Notes: a model not told the origin generated them from the sequence alone. A stretch of DNA of 64,000 bases from Methylococcaceae bacterium TMED69 (GCA_002170535.1 NHDW01000004.1:186190-250189), one strand, 5' to 3'. Counted from the first letter of the stretch, positions 25,395 through 63,151 are shown. A program made the numbers and translations.

Positions 25395-25399
25395 TTTTA

Positions 25400-25580
25400 A
25401 GGATCCATGTTGCCGTGCTATACATTTACCTCGAACCGAAAGTTCAAGATTGGAACGTCCCCGACTGAATCAGGCTTTCTCAAACTCTGGAGAATGCTCA
25501 ACATCAGTACGACTTCTGCTCCTATTTTTTTTTAAGCATAGGCTCAGAGACTAATGAAAGCACATGCAACACAGAAACTA
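25400..25580 (-). ncRNA. ssrS: 6S RNA (SsrS); ends approximate
   Basis: Minus-strand sequence directly downstream of zapA matches remembered E. coli 6S blocks (CUGAGCC; GAGCAUNCUC; GAGAAAGCC; CUUGAAC...GGUUCGAGG). The 5' UUUCUGUGUUGCAUGUGCU pairs with the 3' AGCACGGCAACAUGG to close the structure. zapA-ssrS synteny. Confidence 0.6.
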
Positions 25581-29945: not shown

Positions 29946-30866
29946 ATGACCACTGTTAAAAAAAATAGCATAGACATTGTAAATGGGTGCATATATTCAA
30001 CCAACTTAATTGATTTTCAATTTATTAAAAGGGGCAAAGTGCGTGATATCTACGAGGTTGGAGATCGGCATCTTCTAATAGTCGCTACTGATAGGCTATC
30101 TGCTTTTGATATTGTTATGGCGCAGCCTATACCAAATAAAGGAAAAATCTTGACAACAATCTCTAATTTCTGGTTCGAAAAAACAAGCAAGATTATAAAG
30201 AATCATATTAGTGATATTAATATAAGAAGCTTGTTTTCTTCAGAAGAACTTTATAAAAAAATAAATGCTCAAATCTCAATAGTCGCAAAATTAGCACCGA
30301 TAAAGTTTGAGGCAGTCGTCAGAGGGTTTCTAGCCGGAACGGCTTGGTTAGATTATTTAAAGAACGATTCTGTATCTGGTGTAAAGTTAAGAAAAGGATT
30401 ACAAAAATTCGAGCGCCTTGATGAACCTATCTTTACCCCCTCGACTAAAGCAGCATTAGGCGATCACGATGAAAACATACCCTATGAAGATATGATTAAA
30501 TCCCTTGGTTATGAATTGGCAGAAGAAATAAAAAAAACTAGCATTATGCTTTATAAAGAAGCATTCGAATATTCTTTTTCAAAAGGGATTATACTAGCTG
30601 ATACCAAGTTTGAGTTTGGTTTGGATAGTCATGGGAACCTTATTTTGATTGATGAAGTTTTCACACCTGATTCCTCTCGATTTTGGGATAAATCGACTTA
30701 TCAAAAAGGAAGCGAACCCTTGAGTTTTGATAAACAATTTATAAGAGATTACCTCAATGCCAATTCTTGGAATCGAAAAGAAGAAATCTATTTTCCAGAG
30801 AAAATTATTAATCAAACTAGTGAAAGATATAAGTTAGCTCAGGAAAAATTAATAGGTAAAAGCTAA
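29946..30866 (+). CDS. purC: phosphoribosylaminoimidazole-succinocarboxamide synthase (SAICAR synthetase, long form)
   Basis: GKVRDIY motif and ADTKFEFG block; 306 aa. Confidence 0.9.
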   Translation: MTTVKKNSIDIVNGCIYSTNLIDFQFIKRGKVRDIYEVGDRHLLIVATDRLSAFDIVMAQPIPNKGKILTTISNFWFEKTSKIIKNHISDINIRSLFSSEELYKKINAQISIVAKLAPIKFEAVVRGFLAGTAWLDYLKNDSVSGVKLRKGLQKFERLDEPIFTPSTKAALGDHDENIPYEDMIKSLGYELAEEIKKTSIMLYKEAFEYSFSKGIILADTKFEFGLDSHGNLILIDEVFTPDSSRFWDKSTYQKGSEPLSFDKQFIRDYLNANSWNRKEEIYFPEKIINQTSERYKLAQEKLIGKS

Positions 30867-32014
30867 TTTTCTTCAAGAATGCTAATTACAGGTGACTTTT
30901 TTCCTTCTAAGAATTCTAAGAAAGCACCACCAGCGGTAGAAATATAAGAGATTTTATCCGAAACATTGAATTTCTCGATTGAGGCGATGGTATCCCCTCC
31001 GCCTGCCACTGAGAATGCAGAGGATTCGGCAATTGTTTCCGCTATGGTTCTTGTTCCATTGGCAAAGTTATCGAACTCAAAAACCCCTATCGGACCATTC
31101 CAAAGTATCGTTTTAGCGGATTGAATTTTTGATACGATTTTCTTTAAAGTTTTAGGTCCAAAGTCTAAAATAAGATCATTTTCCCTTATTTCATTGAGAG
31201 GCCTGATAGTACCAATAGCTGTTTTACTAAATTCACTGGCACAAACTACATCTATCGGGAAAACGATATTGTCAATATCTTTAAATAATCTACACGCGTC
31301 TTCATAGGCACCTTTTTCAAAAAGTGATTTCCCAATTTGATGGCCACGTGCTTTTATAATCAGATTTGCTATACCACCCCCTAAGATTAAATGGTCTACT
31401 TGTTTCGATAGATTCTTTATTAAGGCGGTTTTGGTTGATATTTTTGAGCCCCCTACAATTGCCACCGTTGGTGATTCATTTTTCTTTACAACTTTGTAAA
31501 GTGCCTGAACTTCAGATAAAAATAACGGCCCAGCTACTTTAGCTTGTGCAAATTGGGCTACACCATAATTAGATGCATGTGCTCTATGGCTATTAGAAAA
31601 AGCCTCGTTTATAAATATATCGCATAATTTACTCATCTTCTTAGCGAGTTGCGAGTCATTGCTGGTTTCGCCTTTTAGGAATCTCACGTTTTCGCATAAT
31701 AGAACCTCCCCCTTGTTAATCCTGACTCCGTCTATCCAATTTTTTTTAAACTTGACCGGCAGGCCGAGAGTCTTCTCGAGAGTTGGAATAAGTGTGGATG
31801 TTGATAAATTTAAATCTTCTGCTCCCTCTTTTGGCCTGCCAATATGGGTCACTAAGATGATGCTTCCCCCTTTATCAAGAATTTTATGAATGGTGGGTGC
31901 AGTTTGTCTAATCCTGAAGTCGTTGGTAACTTTTTTGTTTTCTAACGGTACGTTGAAATCAACCCTCAATAGTACTTGTTTATCTTCAAAATCAAGTTCT
32001 TCAAAAGGTATCAT
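30863..32014 (-). CDS. pgk: phosphoglycerate kinase
   Basis: Full-length PGK similarity (RVDFNVP, GGGASLE-like blocks); ATG at 32014 overlaps gap stop (ATGA). Confidence 0.95.
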
Positions 32015-33024
32015 GAACACTCTTTCATTTTTTTGGCCGTATCTAGCATCCGATTAGAAAAGCCCCACTCATTATCATACCAGCTTACAACCTTTACTAG
32101 GTTTCCCTCTATAACTTTGGTTTGAGCAGGATCTACGATGGATGACCTTGGATCGCCTTTGAAATCGATTGAGACCAGAGGTTCTTCACAAAACCCTAGG
32201 ATACCTTGTAAAGTTGAGTTTGCCTCTTCTTTTAAGATCCTGTTGACCTCTTCAGCACTTGTGTTTCTCTTCGCTTTAAAAGTTAGATCAACGAGCGATA
32301 CTACTAGTGTTGGTACTCTGACAGCGTATCCATCAAGTTTTCCTTTTAATTCAGGTAAGACTAATCCAACGGCGGATGCTGCTCCGGTTTTTGTGGGAAT
32401 TATTGATTGCGTGGCGGACCTGGCTCTTCTTAAATCATCATGATATACGTCACTTAAAACTTGGTCGTTAGTATATGCATGTACTGTGGTCATTAGACCA
32501 CTTTCCACCCCAATTTGCTTTGCTAATGGTTTTACTAAAGGTGCGAGACAATTAGTAGTACAGGATGCATTCGAAACGATTTTGTGGCTTGGTAAAAGGA
32601 CATTGTCATTAACACCATAAACGATTGTGGCATCAACATCATTTCCTGCTGGCGCGGAGATTAAAACTTTTTTGGCCCCTGAGGCGATGTGTTGATTTGC
32701 GCCATTTTTATTGGCGAAGATACCCGTGCATTCAAAAACAATATCTATTTTTAATTCTTCCCAAGGAAGTTTCGATGGGTCTTTTTCATTTAGAACAAAT
32801 ATTTTGTCATGTCCTATTTGTATATGGTCAGAATCTGAGGATATTTTCTGATCCATGGGTCCATAGGCACTGTCATATTTGAGTAAATGCGCATTTGCCG
32901 CGGTATCACCTAGATCATTGATAGCTATAAATTCAAGATCCGCATGTTTTTTAGTTTGATAATGAGCCCTGATAATATTTCTCCCAATTCTTCCAAACCC
33001 ATTGACCGCGATTCTCAATGTCAT
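32011..33024 (-). CDS. gap: glyceraldehyde-3-phosphate dehydrogenase
   Basis: [11 protein letters not shown] motif, SCTTNCLAP active-site block, 337 aa. Confidence 0.95.
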
Positions 33025-33046
33025 GATATCTATCTCCTATCTTATT

Positions 33047-35059
33047 TCATGGTTGTCTAAGATAATTTTTTATCTTAATCAGGCAGTTATCTAAGTCTAA
33101 TTCAAATTCTTTAAATAAAATGTCGGCCGGTGCTGAAGCCCCGAACTGATTTATTCCGATAGCAAGCCCTTCCTTCCCGATGTATTTGTACCAAAGGTCT
33201 GTTGATCCGGCTTCAATTGCAATCTTTTTTATACTCTCTGGCAGTACTGTTTTTTTGTATGATTCGTCCTGCTGGTCAAAAACTTGTGAGCAAGGCATGG
33301 AAACAACTTGAATTGCTAAACTCTCCTGCTTTAATGCCGAGGCAATTTCTAGAGCGAGGGAAACTTCAGATCCTGTTGCTATTATACATGCAATAGGATT
33401 GTCGATATTTTTGAGTATATACCCACCTTTTTTTAGATTTTGTATTTCAATTTGGGAAAGATCTAGTTGTGGCATTGATTGTCTAGAGAGGATTAGACAG
33501 GATGGACCGGTTTTTTTTTCGATAGAGGATTGCCAGCCAATGAGGGTTTCGGTTCTATCAGCTGGTCTCCAGACATCTAGATTAGGTATTAGTCGAAGCG
33601 CTTGTAAATGTTCAACAGGTTGGTGAGTGGGGCCATCTTCACCTAAACCTATGGAGTCATGTGTATAAACCAATACAGCGCGAATTTTCATTAAGGCTGC
33701 CATCCTGACGGCGTTTCTGGCGTAGTCTGAAAAGACCAAAAAAGTACCCCCATAGGGGATGCATCCCCCATAAAGTGAGATTCCATTCATTATCGCGGTC
33801 ATTCCAAATTCTCTGACGCCGTAGAAAAGGTAATTGCCTCCATAATCATTTAGATTAAGTGCCCTGCTAGACGTGGAAAACGTGTTGTTGGAACCAGTTA
33901 GATCGGCTGAGCCGCCAATTAACTCGGGTGTAGAAGGAGAGATCATATTCAAAACCGTTTGCGAAGATTTCCGTGTCGCCTCACTCTTTTTATCTTTCTG
34001 AATTTCTATGAGTGAGTTTTGAATGGTTTGGTTCCAATTATTAGGCAGCTTACAATTTACTCTTCGATCTAGTTCCTCCCAGTCTTCAGGGTAATCTTTT
34101 TTATATTTCTCAAGTATAGAATTCCATTCTCTTTCAGCAACCTCTCCTTTCTTCTTGCAATCCCAAGATTCGTAAAATGTTGTTGGAATTTCGAACGGAT
34201 CATAATTCCAATGTAAAGCTTCTCTTGTTTTCTTGATTTCATCTTCGCCAAGAGCTGCCCCATGAGAATCAGCTGTTCCAGATTTGTTAGGGGAACCATA
34301 GCCAATAGTGGTCTTACAAATAATGATTGATGGTCGGTCATGATTATCAATCGCGGAGGAATAAGCTTTATTTAAGCTTTCTATATTGTGGCCATCAACG
34401 TTTTCAATCACATGCCAACCATATGCTGAAAACCTTTCAGCTATATTTTCTGAAAACCAGTTTTTAATATCACCGTCAATCGAAATACCATTAGAATCAT
34501 AAAGAACATTCAATTTTCCCAGTCTTAGAGTTCCAGCTAAGGAGCAGACTTCATGTGAAATTCCTTCCATAAGGCAACCATCACCTACGAACGCGAACGT
34601 TCTGTTGTTGATAAGTTCGATATTTTTTTTATTAAATCTCGCAGACAAGTTTCGTTCCGCAATTGCAAATCCAACAGCGTTCGCAAGACCTTGGCCAAGT
34701 GGCCCAGTTGTGGTTTCGACTCCAGGCGTTTCTCGATATTCAGGATGTCCGGGAGTAGCAGAATGTAGTTGTCTAAACGACTTAAGATCACTGATTGACA
34801 AAGAATATCCGCAAAGATGCAATAGCGAATATATAAGCATGGAGGCATGACCATTTGATAGAACAAATCTATCCCTATTAAACCATTTTGGGTTCTTTGG
34901 ATTATGTTTTAAATAGTTTAACCAAAGGACCATAGCCGCTTCGGCTAACCCCATTGGTGCTCCAGGATGTCCTGATTTCGCTAATTCTACGGCATCGATC
35001 GACAAGAAACGTATTGCATTTGCAAGTTGCCTAGAATTTATTTGGTTTAAAGACTCCAA
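33047..35059 (-). CDS. tkt: transketolase
   Basis: LANAIRFLSIDAVELAKSGHPGAP TPP-binding start and full-length Tkt similarity; probable TTG start at 35059 after GGAGG (track GTG start 35089 less likely). Confidence 0.95.
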   Translation of the reverse strand: MESLNQINSRQLANAIRFLSIDAVELAKSGHPGAPMGLAEAAMVLWLNYLKHNPKNPKWFNRDRFVLSNGHASMLIYSLLHLCGYSLSISDLKSFRQLHSATPGHPEYRETPGVETTTGPLGQGLANAVGFAIAERNLSARFNKKNIELINNRTFAFVGDGCLMEGISHEVCSLAGTLRLGKLNVLYDSNGISIDGDIKNWFSENIAERFSAYGWHVIENVDGHNIESLNKAYSSAIDNHDRPSIIICKTTIGYGSPNKSGTADSHGAALGEDEIKKTREALHWNYDPFEIPTTFYESWDCKKKGEVAEREWNSILEKYKKDYPEDWEELDRRVNCKLPNNWNQTIQNSLIEIQKDKKSEATRKSSQTVLNMISPSTPELIGGSADLTGSNNTFSTSSRALNLNDYGGNYLFYGVREFGMTAIMNGISLYGGCIPYGGTFLVFSDYARNAVRMAALMKIRAVLVYTHDSIGLGEDGPTHQPVEHLQALRLIPNLDVWRPADRTETLIGWQSSIEKKTGPSCLILSRQSMPQLDLSQIEIQNLKKGGYILKNIDNPIACIIATGSEVSLALEIASALKQESLAIQVVSMPCSQVFDQQDESYKKTVLPESIKKIAIEAGSTDLWYKYIGKEGLAIGINQFGASAPADILFKEFELDLDNCLIKIKNYLRQP

Positions 35060-35211
35060 TATGCTCTTCCCTCCGATTTTATAGGTCACTGATTCGTACT
35101 AATTAATGCCTAATTATAGTTCAGACTTCTACTAACTGCACTTATAAAAGTATAATATAGTAAAAACTGAAACAAACCTTCTATATGATATCAGTAAATC
35201 GGAGATAAATA

Positions 35212-42201: not shown

Positions 42202-42972
42202 ATGCTTGAAGAAGTTATAGAAAATAAAAAGATAAGTTATAGTCTTGATTTTGATGAATCCAGAAAAAGAAACTTGTTTCTGATTCATGGGGCGTCCTGT
42301 GATTCGAAGGTATTTTTAGAACTTAGTAATAAACTATTAAAAAAATTTAATGTTATGTCAATTGATCTAAATGGCCACGGTGAATCAGGGGGAGAAGGAT
42401 TTAGAGGCGTAGTGGATCATGCGTTTGTTTGTGCTGAGCTTCTAGAAAAAAAGAACCTCGGGCGATGGAATATTATGGGCCATTCTCTCGGAGGTGCGAT
42501 TGCCATGACGTTAGCTTTGTATAAACCAGATTTAATTGACTCCCTTATCTTAGTGGCTACAGGTTCTCGTTTGAGAATCCCTGAAACTTTTCTATCAGAG
42601 ATAAAAAAGGGTAATAATTATGAGTTAAATAAAGAATTTTTAAGAAATTCGATGTTCGATGGTTCTAATGATAGCATCTTAGCCCCACTTTTGGAGATAA
42701 TGCAATCTACAAACCCCAAAGCGGTCTACAAAGATTGGTTAGCAGCAGATTCATTTGATTTATCTAGAAGGTTAAAATCAATAAAATCAAGATGCTTATT
42801 AATTTGCGGTGAAAATGATCCGTTGACACCTCCGAAATACCACGAGTTGTTGAACTCCGAAATACCTAGCTCAAAGCTTTCCGTATTTCCAAACTGTGGA
42901 CATTGGCCGTTTATTGAAAAATCCGAATTGTTTTTAGAGGAACTTGATAAATTCTTGTCTAGCCTTCAATAA
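42202..42972 (+). CDS. alpha/beta-fold hydrolase
   Basis: GHSLGG nucleophile elbow, 257 aa; ATG at 42202. Confidence 0.75.
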   Translation: MLEEVIENKKISYSLDFDESRKRNLFLIHGASCDSKVFLELSNKLLKKFNVMSIDLNGHGESGGEGFRGVVDHAFVCAELLEKKNLGRWNIMGHSLGGAIAMTLALYKPDLIDSLILVATGSRLRIPETFLSEIKKGNNYELNKEFLRNSMFDGSNDSILAPLLEIMQSTNPKAVYKDWLAADSFDLSRRLKSIKSRCLLICGENDPLTPPKYHELLNSEIPSSKLSVFPNCGHWPFIEKSELFLEELDKFLSSLQ

Positions 42973-43405
42973 TTTTAAGCATATCCGAGGCGTGACTTTG
43001 AGGATCTACGGCATCGAAATAATGTGTTACATTACACTCGGTATCCAGAATCACTGAGACTCGAGGTGCGTAGGAATCCGCTACTCCACAAATATTGAGT
43101 TTTTTAGACTCTTCAAGTCCAAGGTCTGAAAGGATGTCAAAAGGGAAAGAAAACTTTTCTTTGAAAGATTTATTATCTTCTGGTGAATCTCCGCTGACAC
43201 CAAGTATCACAGTATTTTTCTTAGTAAACTCTTGGATTCTATCACGGAACCCACTGCCCTCAATGGTTCATCCTGGTGTATCGGCTTTTGGAAACCACCA
43301 TAAAATAAGTTTTTTTCCAGAAAAATTATCGATAGAAACGACTTCTCCGTTTTGATTTACGAAAGATAAATTAGCTAGATTTTTACCAACTATAGTTTCA
43401 GGCAT
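42959..43405 (-). CDS. bcp: candidate selenoprotein: Bcp/PrxQ-type peroxiredoxin with in-frame TGA (43268-43270) at the peroxidatic Cys position
   Basis: Translation from ATG 43405: ...KKLILWWFPKADTPG-U-TIEGSGFRDRIQEF...VILGVSGDSPEDNKSFKEKF... aligns with E. coli Bcp YFYPKAMTPGCTVQACGLRD with TGA at Cys45. Frame continues into the track ORF 42959..43210. 7-bp hairpin 15 nt after UGA. Confidence 0.75.
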
Positions 43406-43418
43406 GGTCGTTATCCTA

Positions 43419-44312
43419 TTAAGTGATTGATGCAGTATAAATCTTATTGATTGCTAATCCTAGTCTTTCCGAGAACATTTGATCGGTCATGCCGGCTGAA
43501 AGTCCTTCGGTTAAGGCTCGAGAAAAGCTCGCAATTACTCCGAGATTATTGTGTAACTTTTTATTTGCTAATTCTTGAGGATATCCACCAGATAACGCTA
43601 CTACTCTTAAAATGTTATCTTGCTTTGATATATCTTGATAGAAATTTTCTTTATCTGGAAGTGTCAATTTTAACATTATGCGATCATTAATATTGAGTTT
43701 GTCTAGTTCCTTATGTAAATTTTCTAGCAACATGTTTTCAGCTTCTAGTTTAGCTGGGCAATTGATATCAATTTCTGGTTCAATTATTGGAACCAATCCT
43801 TCATTAATAATTACTTTTGCAGTTTCAAATTGTTGTTTTACTACTTTTTTTATTCCTGAATGGTTACTCGATTTAATGACTGATCTCATTTTAGTCCCAA
43901 ATATTTCTTTGTTTTTTGCAATCTTCAATATTTTGATTAGGTTAGGGTTAGGCTGCATTAATTGCACACCTTCTTCTTCGTCTGCAAGTCCTTTATCAAT
44001 TTTTAGAAAAGGGACAATTTCTTTTTTTTCCCACAAGTACTTTGCACAGTCAAGGCCGCAAAATTGAGAATTCATTGTTCTTTCAAAAAGAATTGCTCCG
44101 ATGATTTGCTTGCCGGTAAAGTTTGAGTCTGACACTATCCTTTCTCTCATTTTATGCACAAGTTCAAACATTTCCTCTTCGCTGGACCACTCATTCTCTT
44201 TGATTCCATAGTTCATTAACGCTTTCGGAGTGCTTCCTCCACTCTGATCTAACGCAGCAATAAACCCTAAACCAGTTTTAATTTTTGCTATTTTTAAGTT
44301 TTCTGATGTCAT
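43419..44312 (-). CDS. fructose-bisphosphate aldolase class I (short ~296-aa bacterial type)
   Basis: GKGFIAALDQSGGSTPKAL block typical of the ~296-aa class I Fba family. Confidence 0.85.
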   Translation of the reverse strand: MTSENLKIAKIKTGLGFIAALDQSGGSTPKALMNYGIKENEWSSEEEMFELVHKMRERIVSDSNFTGKQIIGAILFERTMNSQFCGLDCAKYLWEKKEIVPFLKIDKGLADEEEGVQLMQPNPNLIKILKIAKNKEIFGTKMRSVIKSSNHSGIKKVVKQQFETAKVIINEGLVPIIEPEIDINCPAKLEAENMLLENLHKELDKLNINDRIMLKLTLPDKENFYQDISKQDNILRVVALSGGYPQELANKKLHNNLGVIASFSRALTEGLSAGMTDQMFSERLGLAINKIYTASIT

Positions 44313-44356
44313 TATTTAGACCTTTCGTGATTATTGTAATCTAATTAAGCGTTGTT

Positions 44357-45340
44357 TTAATGCAAGGTTGGATTAATCCAAATTGCTTTTCTTTTTGCTG
44401 ATACCACATTTACAATAGTATGCTTGTCTCCTCTTTCGATTTCAATTGAGATGATATTGCCTGCTGGGCCTGCATTCCATATTTCTTTAAAAAGTTGATC
44501 TAAAGTTTTCGGTGCAACTCCGTTAATACTTTTTATAATATCTCCGTTACTTATCCCAGCTAAGGCGGCTGGGGAGGACTTATAGAGCCCTAAAACTACA
44601 AATTGTTCTTCTACAACGGATACAAAAAATCCCAAATAAGGCCTATTGCTTTCTTTGACTCCACCTGTCCTCTTTATTTCGGAGAAAAAAGACCATAGAG
44701 GATCTATCGGAATACACAAATTCCCTGAAAACTCGCTTTTACTGGTGGGTGGATTCTCCAAGTAAAGAGAACCTATTCCACTTAGCTCCCCTTTTTTATT
44801 GAGAAGAGCAGCTCCTCCCCAGTTTGGGTGTGATGGTGTTGTATAAAAAGCTCTGTCTAACACGTATTCCCAGTATCCTGTAAAGCTATCACAACTCCCT
44901 ATATCAACCACTACAGTCTGCTCTAAACCACCAAACCCTGCTAACATAAAGCCAGAATCTCCAGCATTAATCTGTTTATTACAATCTGATACAGGAATGG
45001 TAGGAATGGATATTGTACTTAACGGTTTTAATAGCCCTAGTCCGGATTCATAGTCGTACATTACTGTATCTGCCAATACAGTTTCGTCACTGGCTGTAGT
45101 TATCCAAATTTGCGTTGCTTCTGCAATGAGGTAGCCTACTGTAACAATTAGTCCCATCTGATTAATGAAAACACCATTGCCGGTTCTCTTTGTGCCTAAG
45201 ATATCGGCTGTTTGTGCATGCTCGGGGACAATAGTGGTGATTGATACTATTGCCCGGAGTCTTCTTTCCATTTCTTCGTCCGAAATGTCAAAGTTTTCGA
45301 ATCTTTCGCTCCGCGGTTGAACCATCTTTTCGTCTGTCAT
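44357..45340 (-). CDS. trypsin-like (S1C) serine peptidase with C-terminal PDZ domain
   Basis: Chymotrypsin-fold N-region with GDSG-type block (NAGDSGFMLAG); PDZ-like C-terminus (LGLYKSSPAALAGISNGDIIKSING). Confidence 0.75.
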   Translation of the reverse strand: MTDEKMVQPRSERFENFDISDEEMERRLRAIVSITTIVPEHAQTADILGTKRTGNGVFINQMGLIVTVGYLIAEATQIWITTASDETVLADTVMYDYESGLGLLKPLSTISIPTIPVSDCNKQINAGDSGFMLAGFGGLEQTVVVDIGSCDSFTGYWEYVLDRAFYTTPSHPNWGGAALLNKKGELSGIGSLYLENPPTSKSEFSGNLCIPIDPLWSFFSEIKRTGGVKESNRPYLGFFVSVVEEQFVVLGLYKSSPAALAGISNGDIIKSINGVAPKTLDQLFKEIWNAGPAGNIISIEIERGDKHTIVNVVSAKRKAIWINPTLH

Positions 45341-45359
45341 TAAAAATTATGTAATCGTC

Positions 45360-45704
45360 TTATTTCGAAAAAATGTCATTGAATTTATCCTCGTTGAAAC
45401 CTACTACAATCATATTTTTATAAATTATAGTTGGGGCACGAAGGTTCCCAGTTGGGCCCAACATAAATGGTGTTATGGAAGATTTTTTTTCATCTTTAAT
45501 ATCAAAATGATTTGTGTTTCTCCCCTTAAAAATAATTATTTTGACAGCTCTTTCTAGGAGGGACTCTGCTTCCGGTTTACCCAGTTTTTTGTTAGCTGAA
45601 ATTTCTTCGATTATTTGAATAGAATTTGCTTCCAAGAACTCGGATGCTTTGGTGCAAGTAGCTCATCCTTTTCGAAAGTAATACCATTTAATCTTTTTGC
45701 TCAT
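45360..45704 (-). CDS. candidate selenoprotein: ArsC/YffB/Spx-family thioredoxin-fold protein with in-frame TGA (45663-45665) replacing the first Cys of CxxC
   Basis: From ATG 45704: MSKKIKWYYFRKG-U-ATCTKASEFLEANSIQIIEE... aligns with E. coli YffB [24 protein letters not shown]. Frame continues into the track ORF 45360..45635 (whose M is a TTG Leu). Total 114 codons, typical family length. Confidence 0.7.
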
Positions 45705-54568: not shown

Positions 54569-55208
54569 AAATGCATCCTAGTTTACCGTCTGTCTCATTA
54601 TTGATTTCCATGATTGTACTGAATACGTAGTGAGAATCTGCCGGTTGCAAAATGCACCGTAAATGATCTGACCGTTTATTAACCTTCCTTAAAATAGCGT
54701 TTGCTCCTGCAAGCGATCCACAAAGTAAACCTGATTCAGACCAGGCTGAATCAGGAACGGGAACAAGTTCTTTTAAAACTAAAGAAGCAACTGGTCCCAT
54801 CATCGCAAATTCACAGTAATCAGCACGTTGTACAACATAATTGACAGAGCTAGACGGAATTGAACTTTTAAAACCGTTAATCAACGTTTCGTCATAGGAG
54901 TTGACAAGTATGATTTTTTCTTGGTCAAGACAAATAATTCCACCACTACCCACTGAGGTCCATTGAAATGGCTCTATATCATTAATTTCAAAGTAGGTTT
55001 TTGTTATTAGCGCTGCTTCTTTCCCTAAAATTATTAACTTCTGAAGACAGGATAAATCGAATATGCAACTGATTTCTGAAGTGGCTTTGAAAGGTTTTCG
55101 AAGAGCACTTATTTGACAGGATTGAAATGTTTTAGTCTCTACTGTACTTTTATCGAAGAAAGCTCCTAAGGGGCTTGTGCTATCAAAGTCACCATGTATT
55201 AAAGTCAT
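54540..55208 (-). CDS. sarcosine oxidase gamma-subunit family protein (probable N-methylglutamate dehydrogenase subunit D)
   Basis: 222 aa, SoxG family size and position (last of four sox-like genes); ATGA overlap with alpha subunit. Confidence 0.7.
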   Translation of the reverse strand: MTLIHGDFDSTSPLGAFFDKSTVETKTFQSCQISALRKPFKATSEISCIFDLSCLQKLIILGKEAALITKTYFEINDIEPFQWTSVGSGGIICLDQEKIILVNSYDETLINGFKSSIPSSSVNYVVQRADYCEFAMMGPVASLVLKELVPVPDSAWSESGLLCGSLAGANAILRKVNKRSDHLRCILQPADSHYVFSTIMEINNETDGKLGCIFSYKNSSGE

Positions 55209-58057
55209 ACATTCTGCCTTTCATTTTCTGGATCATAAAAACTCGAAGAAACAACTAATGCGCTAAGAGTCGAGCCATCATCAAGTCTAATTTGGACTGA
55301 CTCGTTTTGATGAAACGGGACGTTTATCATAGCTAGGCCAATGATTTTCTTTAAGGTTGGGCTGAAGTTTACACTTGTTACTCTTCCTGTGATATCGCCT
55401 TGAAAGATTGTAAGATTATTTTCCTTGATCTCAAGTCCTCTTAAATCACTCATTTCGAAGCCTACAAGTTTTCGTGCTACATTTTCTTTTAGGTCTTTCA
55501 AACTGTTTCTACCATAAAATCGATCTTTCTTTAAATTAACCCCCCATCCTAGGTTAACTTCAAAGGGGTTGGTGTTACCATCTGTATCTTGTCCAAAAAT
55601 AAGATGGCCTTTTTCTAAGCGAAGTAATCTCTGCGCTTCTACTCCGAAAGGTTTAATGTGGTTAGGCCTACCCGCTTCGAGTAATCCATTCCAAACCCTA
55701 GCTAAGCTATTTGTAGGCATATGTATCTCATAACCTAGTTCGCCCACAAACCCTACACGCATTATTCTTGATGGTACTCCGCAAACGGTTGCCTCTCTAT
55801 AGCCTAAGTAAGGAAACTCCTCTGCATTGAGCGGATAATCCGTAACTTGGCTCAATACATTTTTCGAGGAAGGGCCGGCCAAATTCAAGGCACCGACTTG
55901 GCCCGTATGATCCCAAATTGTGACATCTAATTTTAATTGTGCCTTAAAAAGTTCAAGTAGCCTAACAACGGTTTGGGAGTGGCTACTAGTTGCTGTAATG
56001 TAAAAATGGTTTTCCCCAAGTTTTGCAGCTACTCCATCATCTACCAGCGTTCCACCGGCGTCTACCATGAAAATATACCGAGTCATTTCTAATTTTAATT
56101 TATCAAATTTGCAAGTATAAGCGTACTCTAGTAATGCCTCTGCGTCGGGCCCAAAAAGTTCGATTTTACCGAGTGTTGAAACATCAATGATGCCTACGTT
56201 TTTTCTCACTGTTGAGTATTCTTTAGCTATAAGATCTCTGGAAACCGATCCACCATAGGCCATTGGACGACGCCAAACCCCATTTTCCTTTATATCAGCC
56301 ATTTGTTCCTGGTGATATGCATCAAGACTAGTTCTTCTCTCTCTCCTTACTCGTCTGCCTGCAAGTTTTCCTATTGGTACAGGATAAACAAAAGGTCTGG
56401 GTGTTACAGTTCCTACATTACCTACGGGTAGTTCATTAAATTCAGCTACTAATCTGATGCCGTTTAAATTGGACAATTTGCCTTGACTAGGCCCCATTCC
56501 AATAGTGCTATATCTTTTCAGTAACTCAATTGAATCAAACCCTTCTTTCATGCCATTTATCAAATCCTTTACTTTTAAATCTTCATCCAGATCAATAAAC
56601 TCATTTCCTTTGGCATGCGGATAGATCGGGTAGGAATGGCTCTGATTTTCACAAGCTATTTCGATGTTATTCGAAACCACTTGATTCTCTAAGAAGGCCT
56701 CGCAAGCGGCGGCCGTGAGTTTACCATCTTCTAATCTGTTTGTAAGGTCATAAACACCCCTAACCGATCCAGCAGCGAAAATCCCTAAAGGCAACTCATC
56801 TGGGATCAGCTGATTAATTTCTTCAATGTACTTTAGCTTGCTTCCTGCTTGTACGAGCAAATTTGAAGCAGGCGACCAACCAATACTCATTATTAAGCCA
56901 TCACATACGATTTCTTTAGAGGAAGGATCATTGACGGTCCGGTAAACGAATGAACTTAAACAACCATTTTTGCTTTTTGCTTCCGTCGGAACTACATCAC
57001 TTACTACTTCAATCCCTATTGATTCTGCGTGCTTCTTAAGTACTCCATTTGCTTCAAAGGGTGATAGTTGTAAAATGTAATTTACATTTACTCCTGAGGC
57101 TTTAAGTTTCAATAGGCGTTTGAATCCTAAGTCATTTGCTACCAGTGCGATTGACTTTTCGAATGGGTCGATTGAATATCTATGAGCTAATCTGGCTACA
57201 GCGGACCCTAATACAACCCCGGGAAGATCATTATTTCGAAAAACGGCAGGTTGTTCATAGGCTCCAGAGCAAGTAATTATTGCTTTTGCTGAAACTAATT
57301 TACAACCATTTGGTCCTTCTAAAATTACCGATTTGTCATCGTAATACCCACTCGCGAAATGTTGATTTAAGCAAGTAATATTCGAGGCCGCTGTTTCCCT
57401 GATATTTGATTGGATTCTTTCCGAAAGATCTTCCAGTTCGAAGCCGGAACATCCCCCAAGTTTAAGATTTTCGTCTGCAATTATTACTTTGTACTTCGAT
57501 TTCGAAAAATACGCGGCTGCTGCGGTTCCTGAGGCACCTCCACCAATGATTAGAACATCGCAAAATAAGGTTTCAGAAGGATATCGTTTTTTAGTGTAAT
57601 TAGCCTTGACTTGCCCTAATCCAGCTAAGTTTCGGATAAGTTTTTCCCAATAGGGCCACAGAAAAGCTGGTTTAAAAAAGGCTTTGTAATAAAATCCGAC
57701 CGGAAGTATTGGTGCGAATACACCCAGAATACGAGTGAGGTCATTACGTACCCCACCGATTGTATTAATAGCTTTTAAGCTGCCATAATCCTCATTTGCC
57801 AGAGAAACATCACCTCTGATATTGGTTCTATCCTCAGATTGGAGGAGAACATTGGCGTCATGGTTAGCAAGTGAGACAAAGCCTCTTGGTCGATGGTATT
57901 TAAAACTTCTCCCTAATATTTTTTGTTCATTAGCTATCAAAGCACTTGTGATGGAATCACCTTTGAATGCGGTAATTTCATTGCCTTCAAATTTGAATGT
58001 TATCTTTTTGGAACGATCAATCCACTCATTATCTTTTGCTGGTAACCTTCTTGCCAT
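55205..58057 (-). CDS. sarcosine oxidase alpha-subunit family protein (probable N-methylglutamate dehydrogenase subunit C)
   Basis: 950 aa; N-terminal 2Fe-2S-like region, NAD/FAD Rossmann (IIGGGASG), C-terminal aminomethyltransferase/folate-binding (GcvT-like) domain. Confidence 0.85.
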   Translation of the reverse strand: MARRLPAKDNEWIDRSKKITFKFEGNEITAFKGDSITSALIANEQKILGRSFKYHRPRGFVSLANHDANVLLQSEDRTNIRGDVSLANEDYGSLKAINTIGGVRNDLTRILGVFAPILPVGFYYKAFFKPAFLWPYWEKLIRNLAGLGQVKANYTKKRYPSETLFCDVLIIGGGASGTAAAAYFSKSKYKVIIADENLKLGGCSGFELEDLSERIQSNIRETAASNITCLNQHFASGYYDDKSVILEGPNGCKLVSAKAIITCSGAYEQPAVFRNNDLPGVVLGSAVARLAHRYSIDPFEKSIALVANDLGFKRLLKLKASGVNVNYILQLSPFEANGVLKKHAESIGIEVVSDVVPTEAKSKNGCLSSFVYRTVNDPSSKEIVCDGLIMSIGWSPASNLLVQAGSKLKYIEEINQLIPDELPLGIFAAGSVRGVYDLTNRLEDGKLTAAACEAFLENQVVSNNIEIACENQSHSYPIYPHAKGNEFIDLDEDLKVKDLINGMKEGFDSIELLKRYSTIGMGPSQGKLSNLNGIRLVAEFNELPVGNVGTVTPRPFVYPVPIGKLAGRRVRRERRTSLDAYHQEQMADIKENGVWRRPMAYGGSVSRDLIAKEYSTVRKNVGIIDVSTLGKIELFGPDAEALLEYAYTCKFDKLKLEMTRYIFMVDAGGTLVDDGVAAKLGENHFYITATSSHSQTVVRLLELFKAQLKLDVTIWDHTGQVGALNLAGPSSKNVLSQVTDYPLNAEEFPYLGYREATVCGVPSRIMRVGFVGELGYEIHMPTNSLARVWNGLLEAGRPNHIKPFGVEAQRLLRLEKGHLIFGQDTDGNTNPFEVNLGWGVNLKKDRFYGRNSLKDLKENVARKLVGFEMSDLRGLEIKENNLTIFQGDITGRVTSVNFSPTLKKIIGLAMINVPFHQNESVQIRLDDGSTLSALVVSSSFYDPENERQNV

Positions 58058-58293
58058 TATTGTTCCTCAATGGAAAGTATGGCATTGGCTTTAGTTTCAC
58101 GGCTTACCCTAAACCACTTTTGTGAAGGTTGGTGATACCACCACTCCATTCTCTTAAGAGGTCGGCTATCTTGGTGATAGGCCCATCTGCCCGCTGAGCC
58201 CTCGAGATCGGCAGGCTCTGGGTCGATGGCGCCTCCATAAATGAATTCTGTGATGGGTCTTTCTCCAATCAATGGGCAATTTAAGTATTTCAT
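58057..58293 (-). CDS. sarcosine oxidase delta-subunit family protein (probable N-methylglutamate dehydrogenase subunit B)
   Basis: MKYLNCPLIGERPITEF start matches SoxD (MLLIECPNCGPRNENEF); ATG at 58293; stop overlaps alpha start. Confidence 0.75.
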   Translation of the reverse strand: MKYLNCPLIGERPITEFIYGGAIDPEPADLEGSAGRWAYHQDSRPLKRMEWWYHQPSQKWFRVSRETKANAILSIEEQ

Positions 58294-58303
58294 AGTGGTA
58301 AAA

Positions 58304-59545
58304 TTAGTGGCCGACTGAGGCCGCCCCTTTCTCCCCGACAAGCTTGAAATCCTCGAATCTATTAAGATTGAATTCAGTGATCAGTGAATCGTCTTTATTA
58401 AGGGCTATTGAGTTTGCCATACATTTTCCGCTCACCGGAGTTGCTTTGAAGCCCCAAGTACCCCAACCTGAATCTAGAAAGAATCCATCAACTGGAGTAG
58501 TTCCCATAATAGGAGCAAAGTCTGGTGTCATGTCTGCCATGCCAGCCCATTGTCTATTAATCTTTACAGAACTTAGAAACGGGAATAAATCTAATATTTG
58601 GTCGCACATACCAGAGACAAATTCATAGCTTGATTTAGTGTTGTGCTGTTCAATTGGATCGACTGATGCACCCATCACAAGCTCTCCTCTGGAGCTTTGG
58701 CTGACGTAAATATGTAAACTTCCTGAGACGATTATAGTGTTTAGCCATGGTTTCATTGGTTCAGTAACACAGGCTTGGAGAGGATAGATATCGATTGGAG
58801 AATCGAGTCCGACCATGTTTAAAACTGTCGGTGTGGCACCCGCTACGGCTGAAAGTACTGTACTGGTTTTAATTGGGCCTCTATTTGTTTCAACAGAAAC
58901 GACTTTGTTTTTCTCGATATTAATTCCTGTTACTAGGGTATTCTGATGGATCTCAACCCCTTTTTGACAAGCTTTTTTTGCGTATCCCCATGCTACGGCA
59001 TCGTGCCTCGCGACAGCCCCAGGTGCATGAAACAGTGCGCCTTCAATAGGATGGTTGCCACCGCACTCAAGATCTATCTCAGGACAGGCCGCTTTGACCT
59101 CAGACGGTCCAACAACACTGCTGTCTATCCCATAATGTTTATTTACTTCTGCCCTCCATCTGGCGGTCCTCAAAGTAGCGTCGCTGTGTGCCAAAGTGAA
59201 GTGGCCCCTTTCAGAGAAAAAGATATTAGTTTCAAGTTCTTCCGAAAGTTGGTTAAATAATCGTACGCTCTCACCATAAAATTTAACCCCCTCTTCGGTT
59301 AGATAATTTGATCTTATAATGGTAGTGTTTCTACCTGTATTTCCAGCTCCAATATAGCTCTTTTCTAAAACGGCTACTTTACTTATGTTATGATAGTGGG
59401 AAAGATAGTAAGCACAAGCTAGGCCATGGCCACCGGCGCCAATTATTACAACATCATAGGATTCCTCAAGATCTTTCGCAGGATTGAACCACCTGTGTTC
59501 TGAATGGTTATCTATGAAGCCGTACTTTAATAATCTTATAGACAT
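58304..59545 (-). CDS. sarcosine oxidase beta-subunit family FAD oxidoreductase (probable N-methylglutamate dehydrogenase subunit A)
   Basis: 413 aa, VVIIGAGGHGLA dinucleotide-binding motif, DAO-family fold. Confidence 0.85.
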   Translation of the reverse strand: MSIRLLKYGFIDNHSEHRWFNPAKDLEESYDVVIIGAGGHGLACAYYLSHYHNISKVAVLEKSYIGAGNTGRNTTIIRSNYLTEEGVKFYGESVRLFNQLSEELETNIFFSERGHFTLAHSDATLRTARWRAEVNKHYGIDSSVVGPSEVKAACPEIDLECGGNHPIEGALFHAPGAVARHDAVAWGYAKKACQKGVEIHQNTLVTGINIEKNKVVSVETNRGPIKTSTVLSAVAGATPTVLNMVGLDSPIDIYPLQACVTEPMKPWLNTIIVSGSLHIYVSQSSRGELVMGASVDPIEQHNTKSSYEFVSGMCDQILDLFPFLSSVKINRQWAGMADMTPDFAPIMGTTPVDGFFLDSGWGTWGFKATPVSGKCMANSIALNKDDSLITEFNLNRFEDFKLVGEKGAASVGH

Positions 59546-59569
59546 ATGGAATTACTTTTGTGTATGAAA

Positions 59570-59962
59570 TTAATCAAATTTCCCGTAAGCAGTTCTTAAT
59601 GCTACTAGCGGATGGTTGTCTGACATTTGGAACTTAACAAGTAGTTCTCTAGCAATCATGTCTCTTTCCTGTTGGTTATCGGGCAGTTTTAGATCTGGTG
59701 GTACCGTTACCCATCCGTTAATATTGCGGTCGAATACAGCGGCACGACCCTCTTCGTAACCCATGTGGATGTCTTCGAGCCAATTCAGGTCTTTCCAACC
59801 CATATAATCTAGATATTTTTTAAGAAAAGGCGTCAACCTAGATAGGTCTGGTAATAGATTTACATCATAGCGATAACCAATCGTTTGTCCTATCATCTTC
59901 TCTCGCTCAGAGTCGACTCCATCTGACTTTAGATAATGATCAATGTCTTTGTTTTCACCCAT
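59570..59962 (-). CDS. hypothetical protein (130 aa) inserted between the mgs-like and sox-like genes
   Basis: Complete ORF, same strand, tight spacing; no recognisable domain. Confidence 0.5.
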   Translation of the reverse strand: MGENKDIDHYLKSDGVDSEREKMIGQTIGYRYDVNLLPDLSRLTPFLKKYLDYMGWKDLNWLEDIHMGYEEGRAAVFDRNINGWVTVPPDLKLPDNQQERDMIARELLVKFQMSDNHPLVALRTAYGKFD

Positions 59963-59992
59963 AGCTCTTCTCCTATCTAAAAATTATCGTAA

Positions 59993-61330
59993 TTAAAATC
60001 GGTTCAGGTCTGGCCGCCCGACCGTGACTTGGGTCCCGGCTAAAGGTACTTGAGCCATCGCGGAGGCTTCCATTGTTAGAGCAGCTAAATCCTCAGGCTC
60101 TAATGAGTGAATATTGGTTTTTCCACAGGCTCGGGCCATCATTTGGCACTCTATCGCAAGGGTGTGAAGGAAGTTATATACTCTCTCTGCGGCTTTGTCC
60201 GGGTCAAGTCTTTCTCTGAGTTTAGGATCTTGCGTGGCAATCCCAACTGGGCATCTCCCTGTATGGCAGTGATAGCAGTTGCCAGCTTTCACGCCCATTT
60301 CTTCCTCGAAATTGGCTTCTGGTATGTCCTTGTTGCAGTTTAAGGCCATCATAGACGCGTGACCAATTGCTATGGCGTCCGCCCCTAATGCTAAAGCTTT
60401 TGCGATATCTCCGCCATTTCGGATTCCGCCTGCATAGACTAATGTAATTTCTCCGCTTTTACCTACATCGTCTAAAGCTCGCCTTGCTTGTCTGATAGCA
60501 GCGATTCCAGGGACGCCTGTTTCTTCCGAGGCTAGGTGGGGTCCTGCGGCAGTTCCGCCTTCCATTCCGTCTATATAGATTGAGTCTGGGTCTGTCTTAG
60601 CGGCCATTCGAACGTCATCATATACTCTAGCAGCGCCCAATTTAAGTTGGATGGGTATTTCCCAGTTCGTTGCCTCTCTAATTTCTTCGATCTTGAGAGC
60701 CAGATCATCTGGTCCTAACCAGTCAGGATGTCTCGCGGGAGATCTCTGATCTATTCCAGCAGGTAGCGAACGCATCTCCGCGACTTGATCAGTAACCTTC
60801 TGACCCATAAGATGACCACCTAATCCTACTTTTGCTCCTTGACCAATAAAGAATTCGCACCCGTCAGCCAGTCGCAAGTGCTGCGGATTAAATCCATATC
60901 TAGATTGTATGCATTGATAAAACCATTTCTCTGAAAAACGTCTTTCATCTGGAATCATTCCACCTTCACCAGAGCATGTGGCTGTTCCCGCCATTGTTGC
61001 ACCTCTAGCTAAAGCTGTTTTCGCTTCAAATGATAGTGCTCCGAAGCTCATTCCTGTTATGTAAACTGGTATGTCGAGCTCAATCGGCCGTTTTGCCCTA
61101 GGTCCAATGATTGTTTTGGTTTCACATTTTTCCCTGTAACCTTCGATAACGAATCTAGTTAACGTACCCGGCATGAATGTTAGCTGGTCCCACCCAGGAA
61201 CCTTTTTAAACATTGAAAAACCCCGCATTCTGTATCTGCCAAGCTCAGATTTTATATGAATGTCATTCACTACATCAGGAGTGAAAATTGGGCTTTTCCC
61301 TAGTAAATACTTTTCCTTATCGTCAGACAT
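59993..61330 (-). CDS. glutamate synthase FMN-binding-domain protein (GlxD / probable N-methylglutamate synthase subunit C)
   Basis: 445 aa matching the FMN/Fe-S central domain of GltB (GGTAAGP, Cys cluster CYHCHTGRCPVG). Confidence 0.8.
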   Translation of the reverse strand: MSDDKEKYLLGKSPIFTPDVVNDIHIKSELGRYRMRGFSMFKKVPGWDQLTFMPGTLTRFVIEGYREKCETKTIIGPRAKRPIELDIPVYITGMSFGALSFEAKTALARGATMAGTATCSGEGGMIPDERRFSEKWFYQCIQSRYGFNPQHLRLADGCEFFIGQGAKVGLGGHLMGQKVTDQVAEMRSLPAGIDQRSPARHPDWLGPDDLALKIEEIREATNWEIPIQLKLGAARVYDDVRMAAKTDPDSIYIDGMEGGTAAGPHLASEETGVPGIAAIRQARRALDDVGKSGEITLVYAGGIRNGGDIAKALALGADAIAIGHASMMALNCNKDIPEANFEEEMGVKAGNCYHCHTGRCPVGIATQDPKLRERLDPDKAAERVYNFLHTLAIECQMMARACGKTNIHSLEPEDLAALTMEASAMAQVPLAGTQVTVGRPDLNRF

Positions 61331-61350
61331 AGCTGTTACTCCTTTTTGTT

Positions 61351-62199
61351 TTAAAGAACCAGTTTTTTTTCACTGGGTTCGAGGCTATCGTAATTCCATA
61401 GTTGTTTGCCGGATACGACTTTTTTAATCGTTGATAAATTTAACTTATCGACCAATCCGTAAAGGGTTAATTTATCAGTCAACCATTTTTCATCGGATTC
61501 GGTGGTCTCTGATTCGACTGCGTCGGCTCCTAAGCTTTTGATTTTTCCGCCGACATAAATCGTACCATCATACATTGAGTCCCCAAGATTATTTCCAGCA
61601 TCACCTAAGACCACCATTCTACCCCTTTGCATCATAAATCCTGAAAAAGCGCCCGTGTTTCCTCCAGCGATTATTGTGCCTCCTTTTTGATCGATTCCTG
61701 TTCTGGCACCCACATCTCCCTTACACACTAGGTCACCTCCTCGAATAGCAGCACCAAAAGTTGAACCAGCGTTTTTCTTTATAAGGACGGTTCCAGACAT
61801 CATGTTTTCTCCGCATGACCATCCAACTCTCCCCTCAACAGTGACGTTAGGCCCATCGAGAAGACCGAGGCCAAAATATCCTAGACTTCCTTCAATCTTT
61901 AAATTAAGCCTGTTAAGAATGCCTACTCCAATACTATGTTTAGCTCCCGGATTTTTGATGGTAATTGTTCCATAGCCTTCTGTGAGAAGGTGCTTTAATT
62001 TACTGTTAATCTGCCTTGTGTTTAAATCTTCCGCGTCGATTTCTGCTGACTTAGAAAAGTCAACTTCATAAGCGAAAGGCTGAGCCATTTTTTCTTCATT
62101 GTTATCCAAAGAAAAAAATACTTGCTGAGTTCTCCCCAGCAAGGATTCTGACCTCATTTCGGTTTTTAGGGGTTCATTCGATTTTTCTAAGCCTGCCAT
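61351..62199 (-). CDS. glutamate synthase GXGXG-domain protein (GlxC / probable N-methylglutamate synthase subunit B)
   Basis: 282 aa, repeated G-x-G-x-G beta-helix motifs typical of the GltB C-terminal domain. Confidence 0.8.
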   Translation of the reverse strand: MAGLEKSNEPLKTEMRSESLLGRTQQVFFSLDNNEEKMAQPFAYEVDFSKSAEIDAEDLNTRQINSKLKHLLTEGYGTITIKNPGAKHSIGVGILNRLNLKIEGSLGYFGLGLLDGPNVTVEGRVGWSCGENMMSGTVLIKKNAGSTFGAAIRGGDLVCKGDVGARTGIDQKGGTIIAGGNTGAFSGFMMQRGRMVVLGDAGNNLGDSMYDGTIYVGGKIKSLGADAVESETTESDEKWLTDKLTLYGLVDKLNLSTIKKVVSGKQLWNYDSLEPSEKKLVL

Positions 62200-63131
62200 A
62201 CTCTTACCTCTCCGTCATAAGGATCTGATGTGTCGATTTCATTATTCATAATTGTACGAATGGCGACCTCTTCTGATGCAAGAGCAACTAATTGGTCACT
62301 TTCAAAAAGTACCATTGGCTTCGCGGCCATAGTGTCTTTGGCCATTCCGAGAGAATCAGATGTAGCCAGTAAGTAAGTAAAAACCCCATCTAGTTCCTCT
62401 ACACTCTGAAGCATTGAGTCCTCTAGATTTCTTCCTTGTTCAATTTTGTCAGCTATATAAACAGCTATAAGCTCCGAGTCGCAACTAGACATAAATCGAT
62501 GGCCTTTTCTCTCTAATTCCCGCCTTTTGGACCAATAATTAGTTAATTGGCCGTTATGAACCACTGAAACATCGGCGAAAGGATAAGCCCAATAAGGATG
62601 TGCTGATCTGATGTCCACGTCGGATTCTGTCGCCATTCGGGTATGCCCTATTGCGTGTGTTCCATTAAAAGATTTTAGGGAGTACAAATCAGAAACAACC
62701 TTCGCGTCACCTAGGTCCTTAACAAGCTCTAGTCCTTTTCCTATTGAGAGTATTTCAACCCCCTCTATATCTTCAACGTAATTGGCCAGTTGGCGTAAGT
62801 TACCATCACAAGTAAATGTGTATCTTAGAGCATATTCCGTTATTTTCTCGACCTCGCTAACCTTAACTTTAAGCTCACTAAGCCGGCTTTGGACGCTTTT
62901 TATTCGATCCTCCATTTTGGCGTGAATGTCATAGCCATTGACCGCTTCGTGAGTTTCAGCAACTTTCATTCGCATGACATACTGTTCAGAATCTATGTTG
63001 TCTCTTTCGCAATAAAGAGCGAATCCCGTTGAATCTGGTCCTCGGTGTTTCATTGCTTGAAGCATAAAAGACATTTCCTCGCCTATTTTTGAGCTACCGT
63101 CTCTGTGTATCACCCCCGCTATTCCGCACAT
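62187..63131 (-). CDS. class II glutamine amidotransferase-domain protein (GlxB / probable N-methylglutamate synthase subunit A)
   Basis: MCGIAG N-terminal nucleophile Cys, GltB N-domain-like, 314 aa. Confidence 0.8.
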   Translation of the reverse strand: MCGIAGVIHRDGSSKIGEEMSFMLQAMKHRGPDSTGFALYCERDNIDSEQYVMRMKVAETHEAVNGYDIHAKMEDRIKSVQSRLSELKVKVSEVEKITEYALRYTFTCDGNLRQLANYVEDIEGVEILSIGKGLELVKDLGDAKVVSDLYSLKSFNGTHAIGHTRMATESDVDIRSAHPYWAYPFADVSVVHNGQLTNYWSKRRELERKGHRFMSSCDSELIAVYIADKIEQGRNLEDSMLQSVEELDGVFTYLLATSDSLGMAKDTMAAKPMVLFESDQLVALASEEVAIRTIMNNEIDTSDPYDGEVRVWQA

Positions 63132-63151
63132 AATTCGCTCCTGTTAATTAA

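Follow-up and report, generated by a model that had tools for sequence, protein, structure and literature searches.

A predicted selenocysteine peroxiredoxin of the Bcp/PrxQ type, with a conserved candidate SECIS hairpin, in Methylococcaceae bacterium TMED69

This study concerns a stretch of 64,000 nucleotides (nt) from the metagenome-assembled genome (MAG) of Methylococcaceae bacterium TMED69 (GCA_002170535.1, NHDW01000004.1:186190-250189), hereafter called the window, and in particular a peroxiredoxin (Prx) gene on its minus strand that carries an in-frame TGA at the codon for its catalytic residue. According to its translation, the gene (42959..43405) extends from an ATG start codon at 43405..43403 to a TAG stop codon at 42961..42959, thus comprising a single frame of 148 codons that specifies 147 amino acids (aa) and a stop, with the sole in-frame TGA (43270..43268) at codon 46. 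Translated in this frame, the surroundings of the codon read WWFPKADTPG-TGA-TIEGSGFRDRIQ (FPKADTPG-TGA-TIEGSG). An AGGA motif resembling a Shine-Dalgarno sequence can be read 8 nt before the ATG (43414..43417, minus strand), within the 13-nt gap that separates the start codon from the stop codon of an upstream aldolase-like gene. The list of open reading frames (ORFs) gives the gene only as two minus-strand fragments, an ATG-started one of 45 aa (43268..43405) and a GTG-started one of 83 aa (42959..43210). A preliminary description of the window had noticed only the latter fragment in the ORF track and proposed a complete peroxiredoxin starting from the ATG at 43405, a reading that is borne out by both the translation and the ORF list. 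Based on its sequence, the locus very probably encodes a functional peroxiredoxin of the Bcp/PrxQ type, with selenocysteine (Sec) predicted to be inserted at the UGA codon.

An assignment to the Bcp/PrxQ type was already suggested in the preliminary description. With Cys substituted at the TGA codon, residues 6-128 of the protein match the Pfam family AhpC-TSA (PF00578) over profile positions 1-123 of 124 (E=1.1e-22), and a further match is found to Redoxin (PF08534; E=9e-13). Among the NCBIfam models, the highest scores are reached by NF006960 (thioredoxin-dependent thiol peroxidase, Bcp), with 88.5 bits at an equivalog cutoff of 140, and then by NF053650 (PrxQ), with 73.5 bits, which is below its equivalog cutoff of 260. 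The best match in the PDB is the Bcp homologue 3drn (4e-19), and all ten of the top ten PDB matches are Bcp-type or related peroxiredoxins. Full-length homologues of the protein share 44-82% identity with it.

The UGA codon (43268..43270, minus strand) occupies the peroxidatic position of the PxxxT-x-x-U motif, formed by P39, T43 and U46, and aligns with the Cys codon of homologues that contain the sequence PGCT. These homologues are more remote, with 42-49% identity, and include those of the Nitrospina type; they confirm the proposed coincidence of the TGA with the peroxidatic Cys codon. Across the Sec-Prx family, P39, T43, P44 and G45 show a conservation of 97% or more, and R115, which aligns with the corresponding Arg of the Bcp homologue 3drn, is invariant among homologues. 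The resolving Cys had been reported to be missing, and indeed position 51, five residues after the peroxidatic Cys (Cp+5), is a Ser in the window and variable across the family, so that the protein lacks this hallmark of the atypical 2-Cys Bcp proteins. Moreover, no second conserved Cys was detected among 72 distinct Sec-form proteins; a Cys at Cp+5 occurs only in two forms from Planctomycetota (L001 and L002), which show a U-x4-C arrangement like that of 2-Cys Bcp. Some Bcp proteins are of the 1-Cys type, and the missing resolving Cys thus bears on the mechanism rather than on the assignment of the fold. A deviation within the motif itself is seen in two identical Sec-Prx variants (L074 and L084) on the 359-kb contig Ga0209578_10000039, which contain KADTRG-U-T, with an Arg replacing the usual Pro before Gly-Sec. 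The two copies are located at ~17-30 kb and 329-342 kb, close to both contig ends, and may represent the terminal repeat of a circular assembly instead of a true duplication.

The TGA codon is conserved far beyond the window. We assembled 90 homologous loci, including the window, from a metagenome scan, a species-genome scan and exact look-ups, with the metagenome loci retrieved by means of degenerate back-translated peptide patterns that favoured no codon. As many as 89 of these 90 loci have TGA at the Sec codon and a single one has TGC, and in every locus the frame stays open for 45 codons or more ahead of this codon and for 101-116 codons beyond it. Two Planctomycetota MAGs, one Actinomycetes MAG and the gammaproteobacterial MAG of the window are among the sources of the TGA forms; the first three were among the five loci recovered by the species-genome scan, which was conducted with a single Prx protein. 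A scan of viral contigs for Sec-Prx gave one match, a chance GFRDRIQE peptide within an unrelated protein. In the close clade of the window, the ratio of nonsynonymous to synonymous substitution rates (dN/dS) amounts to 0.11-0.56 (mostly 0.13-0.28), both for residues 1-45 and for residues 60-148. These low values before and after the TGA indicate that both halves of the gene are translated and under selection.

These data bear on two trivial explanations for the in-frame TGA. The gene could have been inactivated by a nonsense mutation at its Cys codon and now be decaying, a scenario in which a single base change would have turned TGC or TGT into TGA and with which the fragmented appearance of the locus in public annotation would agree. 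However, a decaying gene is difficult to reconcile with a TGA shared by 89 of 90 loci over at least three phyla, with dN/dS values well below 1 on either side of it, with the lack of any other stops or frameshifts in the relatives, or with the strong additional constraint on synonymous sites just downstream of the codon that is described below. The preliminary description had named decayed relatives as the sign of a pseudogene, and given their intact frames we regard this explanation as extremely unlikely. Alternatively, the true codon at 43268..43270 could be TGC or TGT and have been altered by a sequencing or assembly error, as may be suspected for any MAG. Yet the 45-aa N-terminal fragment ending at the TGA is present on ~36 contigs of independent assemblies (NCBI, JGI, ENA, Logan, Tara) and the 83-aa fragment on ~34, and diverged orthologues have the same TGA, which leaves an error with a negligible probability.

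A third possibility is that TGA has been reassigned to Trp or Gly in this organism, as in genetic codes 4 or 25. At first sight, this notion gains support from ENA and JGI gene calls of homologues that show the sequence PGWT (P0001-P0008, P0010, P0024 and P0056; loci L006-L010). The DNA underlying these entries, however, reads TGA and not TGG, and the Trp residue stems from gene calling with code 4, apparently an artefact of gene callers that switch to this code on short contigs. Within the window, TGA serves as the stop codon of 17 of the 58 long ORFs, comprising msbA, gap, the TPR gene and 14 others, and it ends Pfam-matched genes such as gap, transketolase (tkt), MTHFR, amt, prfA and msbA at their expected full length. 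The genetic code is thus standard, in line with the original remark that TGA is a normal stop elsewhere in the window, and the probability of a reassignment is close to nil. Although artefactual, the systematic occurrence of such seemingly full-length PGWT entries could be used to spot selenoprotein genes.

Downstream of the UGA, the gene contains a hairpin that is a candidate Sec insertion sequence (SECIS). Its core (43234..43252, minus strand), delimited by frozen synonymous sites and base pairing, spans nt +19..+37, in a numbering that begins at the U of the UGA, and consists of the 5' arm GGGUUC (G19-C24, 43252..43247), the loop CGUGAUA (C25-M31, 43246..43240; M denotes A or C), including G26 and U27 at 43245..43244, and the 3' arm GAAUCC (G32-C37, 43239..43234). 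The codons for the residues G-F-R-D-R-I encoded by nt +19..+36 are nearly invariant (GGR UUC CGU GAU MGA AUC) among 61-67 distinct sequences. Over codons +6..+11, the mean relative codon entropy is ~0.2, compared with ~0.84 at other positions of the gene whose residues are just as well conserved. Thus, the Phe codon has an entropy of 0.11 bit, as opposed to 0.8-1.0 for other conserved Phe codons, and the Ile codon one of 0.0, as opposed to 1.0-1.2 elsewhere; the first Arg codon reaches 0.11 and the second one, which is only CGA or AGA, 1.0 of a possible 2.58, with a value of 0.33 for Asp and a restriction to GGR for Gly. At equally conserved flanking residues, synonymous codons are used freely. 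In an alignment of 61 distinct sequences, all 366 of the 366 hairpin cells are paired: four of the pairs never vary, and the other two vary on one side with pairing kept (G-U/A-U and C-G/U-G). Furthermore, the hairpin is contained in the minimum free energy (MFE) structure of 54 of 63 family sequences, with a median pair probability of 0.96. The preliminary description had placed a 7-bp hairpin at 43233..43253; its position, its sequence and six of its pairs are confirmed by the family alignment, whereas the seventh pair, U18-A38 (43253/43233), is possible in the window but not conserved.

The dimensions of this element fall within the published model of the bacterial SECIS (bSECIS), which comprises an apical loop of 3-9 nt, a stem of 4-16 bp, a distance of 16-37 nt between UGA and loop and an MFE of at most -7.5 kcal/mol, with a G as first or second loop nucleotide that is usually followed by G or U (PMC13188914). 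In the Prx hairpin, the loop CGUGAU(A/C) has 7 nt, the stem has 6 bp (7 in the window) and the distance from the UGA is 21 nt, with G26-U27 as loop positions 2-3, in agreement with the model, so that the size and spacing are indeed compatible with a SECIS, as initially proposed. Cys-form homologues have D-Y-E or a similar sequence where the Sec forms have R-I-Q, and they can therefore not form the 3' arm of the hairpin. The TGA is also kept in the Planctomycetia MAG locus L001 (GFRDLHAEY) and the Actinomycetes MAG locus L003 (GLRDRSPAF), which differ in their downstream sequence. Lacking the frozen GGGUUC...GAAUCC hairpin, these two genes must use a different SECIS.

The hairpin shares with the SECIS of E. 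coli fdhF and the bSECIS consensus its location in the coding sequence 3' of the UGA, the small apical loop, the G-U near the start of this loop and a spacing in the range of 16-37 nt (PMC13188914). It differs from the fdhF element in that it shows no sequence similarity to it, has a conserved stem of only 6 bp without a conserved lower stem or bulged U and, in isolation, is weaker than -7.5 kcal/mol. The G-U pair of loop positions also sits slightly further from the UGA, at +26/+27 compared with about +23/+24 in the fdhF SECIS. Another hairpin, located directly at the UGA (nt 2-24) and preferred in the MFE structure of the window's own sequence, was considered as a candidate and rejected, as only 70% of its family cells are paired, no better than in shuffled sequences. 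When the UGA sits in the ribosomal A site, a hairpin right beside it would lie inside the mRNA channel and be unfolded.

In summary, the case for a functional Sec peroxiredoxin is built on the family to which the protein belongs, on where the UGA lies and how well it is conserved, on purifying selection in either half of the gene, on a conserved RNA element superimposed on the coding sequence and on a second selenoprotein gene nearby. Several observations weigh against it, and a first group of these concerns the hairpin. No double-sided compensatory change was found, and because the stem is invariant, the support for the hairpin lies in conservation and structure and not in covariation. The hairpin is borderline in stability: in isolation, it has a free energy of -6.0 to -6.8 kcal/mol and is weaker than the model threshold of -7.5 kcal/mol, and with its context in the window, the values are -7.0 kcal/mol after masking of the first 15 nt, -7.6 kcal/mol after masking of 12 nt and -8.3 kcal/mol when the structure is enforced within 66 nt. 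Folding of the region after the UGA, as recommended in the preliminary description, gave a divided result: when the sequence from the window is folded by itself and without constraints, the MFE structure is a different hairpin and the fold z-score (-0.38) is not above chance, whereas most family sequences, as noted above, contain the conserved hairpin in their MFE structure, and so does the window once the first 15 nt are masked. The significance of the hairpin thus derives entirely from the comparison with relatives. In addition, no Rfam family matches at the Prx hairpin, at either gathering or permissive thresholds.

The second group of contrary observations concerns the Sec machinery. Neither selA, selB and selD nor tRNA-Sec was found in the window and the 10 kb beyond each of its ends (~84 kb of the MAG), and the same holds true for the surroundings of the Prx gene in 60 related loci. 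Specifically, ARAGORN detected no tRNA-Sec in the window or the 60 related loci, and a Pfam scan of ~40 window ORFs revealed no SelA, SelB or SelD domains. Searches by tblastn with E. coli SelA, SelB and SelD queries of uncertain accuracy gave no match in the window or any locus, which makes for a weak negative. A 'SelR' Pfam match in the 10-kb flanks, which were taken from a matching contig, corresponds to MsrB and not to a sel gene. Indirect support for the presence of the machinery comes from the second selenoprotein gene in the window, described below.

Given that the machinery was not found in the ~84 kb examined or next to the related genes, and that the hairpin is short and moderately stable, it is conceivable that read-through of the UGA does not involve the Sec pathway and occurs either by near-cognate Trp or Cys insertion or by Cys carried on tRNA-Sec, yielding low levels of a Trp- or Cys-containing protein, with the hairpin merely stimulating read-through. 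However, a protein with Trp as its peroxidatic residue would have no activity, and a TGC codon, as present in many Cys homologues, would be a simpler route to Cys. Moreover, the loop shows its G-U signature at a SelB-type spacing, a gene of a curated selenoprotein family is located in the same cluster, and the family itself has been catalogued as Sec-containing. Read-through of this kind is therefore very unlikely in our assessment, if somewhat less so than gene decay.

For a functional Sec peroxiredoxin, the following course of events can be envisaged. With UGA46 at the ribosome, the mRNA just outside would fold into the 6-bp hairpin with its 7-nt loop (nt +19..+37, G-U at +26/+27). Acting as a bacterial SECIS, this hairpin would recruit the SelB·GTP·Sec-tRNA(Sec) complex, leading to the insertion of Sec in place of termination. 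In the resulting protein, Sec46 would take the role of the peroxidatic Cys in a PxxxTxxU site, together with Thr43 and Arg115, and peroxide would oxidise it to a selenenic acid. Since the family has no second conserved Cys, an external thiol or selenol reductant would presumably recycle the enzyme, as in a '1-Sec' mechanism. Sec insertion by way of SelB, the function as a peroxidase and the nature of the reductant are all inferred, the first two from what is established about Sec insertion in bacteria and about Prx chemistry.

A second gene with a TGA at a redox-active position is located 2.3 kb from the Prx gene. This ArsC-related (seleno)protein gene (45360..45704, minus strand) has 114 codons and a UxxC motif, with TGA at 45665..45663 as its Sec codon. 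It was identified by scanning the window for TGA codons in redox motifs; a scan for ORFs joined by TGA with a minimum of 35 codons to either side does not pick it up. The protein reads MSKKIKWYYFRKG-U-ATCTKA...GPTGNLRAPT... and, with 105.1 bits, exceeds the cutoff (85) of the NCBIfam model NF041106 ('ArsC family (seleno)protein'), and in the supplement to the Global Ocean Sampling (GOS) selenoproteome, the family is listed with U. The TGA and the intact frame are kept in the syntenic loci L011, L012 and L014. This gene also has a candidate SECIS hairpin (45628..45647, minus strand; nt +19..+38), with the sequence GCAUCCGA[GUUC]UUGGAAGC and its G-U at +27/+28. The hairpin, which contains one A.A mismatch in the window, is, with the first 15 nt masked, the MFE structure in each of the only four sequences available, and a GAA>GAU change in L014 closes the mismatch (-10.2 kcal/mol). 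The near-equal geometry of the ArsC-like and Prx hairpins is as expected if a single SelB serves both.

Together with the genes for a trypsin/PDZ protease and a class-I aldolase-like protein, which lie between them in this order, the ArsC-like and Sec-Prx genes form a series of four same-strand genes (42959..45704, minus strand) separated by gaps of 19, 44 and 13 nt. The same four-gene order is repeated in L011, L012 and L014, and the linkage was seen only in the clade of the window. The four genes may constitute one operon with a selenoprotein gene at either end. It is tempting to speculate that the ArsC-like UxxC selenoprotein could recycle the selenenic acid of the 1-Sec peroxiredoxin, such that both would form a peroxidase-reductant pair based entirely on selenium. 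In addition, the 19-nt SECIS is nearly invariant across Gammaproteobacteria, Planctomycetota and other lineages, suggesting that the Prx gene and its SECIS could have spread together horizontally as a unit. These ideas are unlikely to prove correct.

Sec-containing peroxiredoxins are not new to marine microbiology. The family, characterized by its TxxU motif (COG1225/pfam00578), has been on record since 2005, from ocean metagenomes (Zhang, Fomenko & Gladyshev 2005, PMC1088965), and was represented by 253 sequences in the GOS data (Zhang & Gladyshev 2008, PMC2398784). Under the heading '#Peroxiredoxin', the accessible part of the GOS supplement includes a sequence of the form ...WWYPKADTPGUTIEGNGFRDRIQDF..., with KADTPGU occurring at least 33 times and GFRDRIQ at least nine times (PMC2398784). 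The marine proteins resemble the one from the window in their domain, T-x-x-U motif, habitat, Sec-flanking residues and the SECIS-encoding GFRDRIQ peptide (PMC1088965, PMC2398784). This agrees with the statement in the preliminary description that Sec-containing Prx-like proteins are known from marine metagenomes. As the GOS supplement holds Sec-Prx proteins with the same motif, the gene described here is an additional, mis-annotated member of a known family. Its subclade (WWFPKADTPGU ... FPFDILSD; 66-82% mutual identity) was not among the GOS supplement sequences examined. In comparison with the marine set, the gene from the window can be assigned to a named MAG and its gene neighbourhood is defined. 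A search of the literature on TMED69 brought up nothing on selenium.

Compared with E. coli Bcp/PrxQ and its relatives (e.g. PDB 3drn and 5iiz; NF006960), the protein has the same fold, a PxxxTxxC-type motif and the catalytic Arg, but it contains Sec instead of the peroxidatic Cys, has no resolving Cys at Cp+5 or any other conserved Cys, and with its 88.5 bits remains below the 140-bit equivalog cutoff of the Bcp model NF006960. A biochemically demonstrated precedent for a peroxiredoxin with Sec in a TxxU motif is PrxU of Eubacterium acidaminophilum (Sohling et al. 2001, cited in PMC13188914). According to this source, PrxU shows that active Sec-TxxU peroxiredoxins exist; its host is a strict anaerobe (Firmicutes).

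Our findings thus amount to an annotation correction and not to a discovery, and they leave the understanding of selenoproteins unchanged. As foreseen in the preliminary description, the Prx gene is mis-annotated: in GenBank, it is entered as a 101-aa 'hypothetical protein' (OUU75413.1), and in other catalogues it is split into genes of 45 aa and 83 aa or has its TGA translated as Trp. Its ArsC-like neighbour is likewise listed as a hypothetical protein, of 91 aa (OUU75416.1). Because catalogues split both genes or read UGA as Trp, the selenium-dependent antioxidant capacity of an abundant marine gammaproteobacterial lineage goes unseen. Apart from this, with 100% pairing among 61 distinct sequences, the locus offers a very clear case of a bacterial SECIS recognizable from synonymous-site freezing alone, and programs that predict selenoprotein genes could be trained or tested on it.

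Several further features of the window, whose content of G and C is 37.7%, deserve mention. A gene set on the minus strand (55205..63856), continuing in L093, resembles an N-methylglutamate/methylamine-type pathway for the oxidation of one-carbon (C1) amines, with members that include Gln-synt_C (gmaS-like), GATase, GXGXG and Glu_synthase (mgsABC-like) proteins, a DAO oxidoreductase, SoxD and a 950-aa sarcosine-oxidase-alpha/GCV_T protein; beyond the end of the window, it is followed by the genes for MsrB and glutamate-cysteine ligase. A phosphoribulokinase-family gene (PF00485 in the gene table of L091) is found at 4152..5009 (minus strand), and a transketolase-gap-pgk cluster at 30863..35089 (minus strand). 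Together with the class-I aldolase-like gene upstream of the Prx gene, these genes may form a carbon module of the pentose-phosphate or Calvin/ribulose monophosphate (RuMP) type in a putative methylotroph. Finally, a 6S (SsrS) RNA is located at 25398..25580 (minus strand), in the gap after a ychF-like GTPase gene (Rfam RF00013; 53.9 bits, gathering score 46.4).

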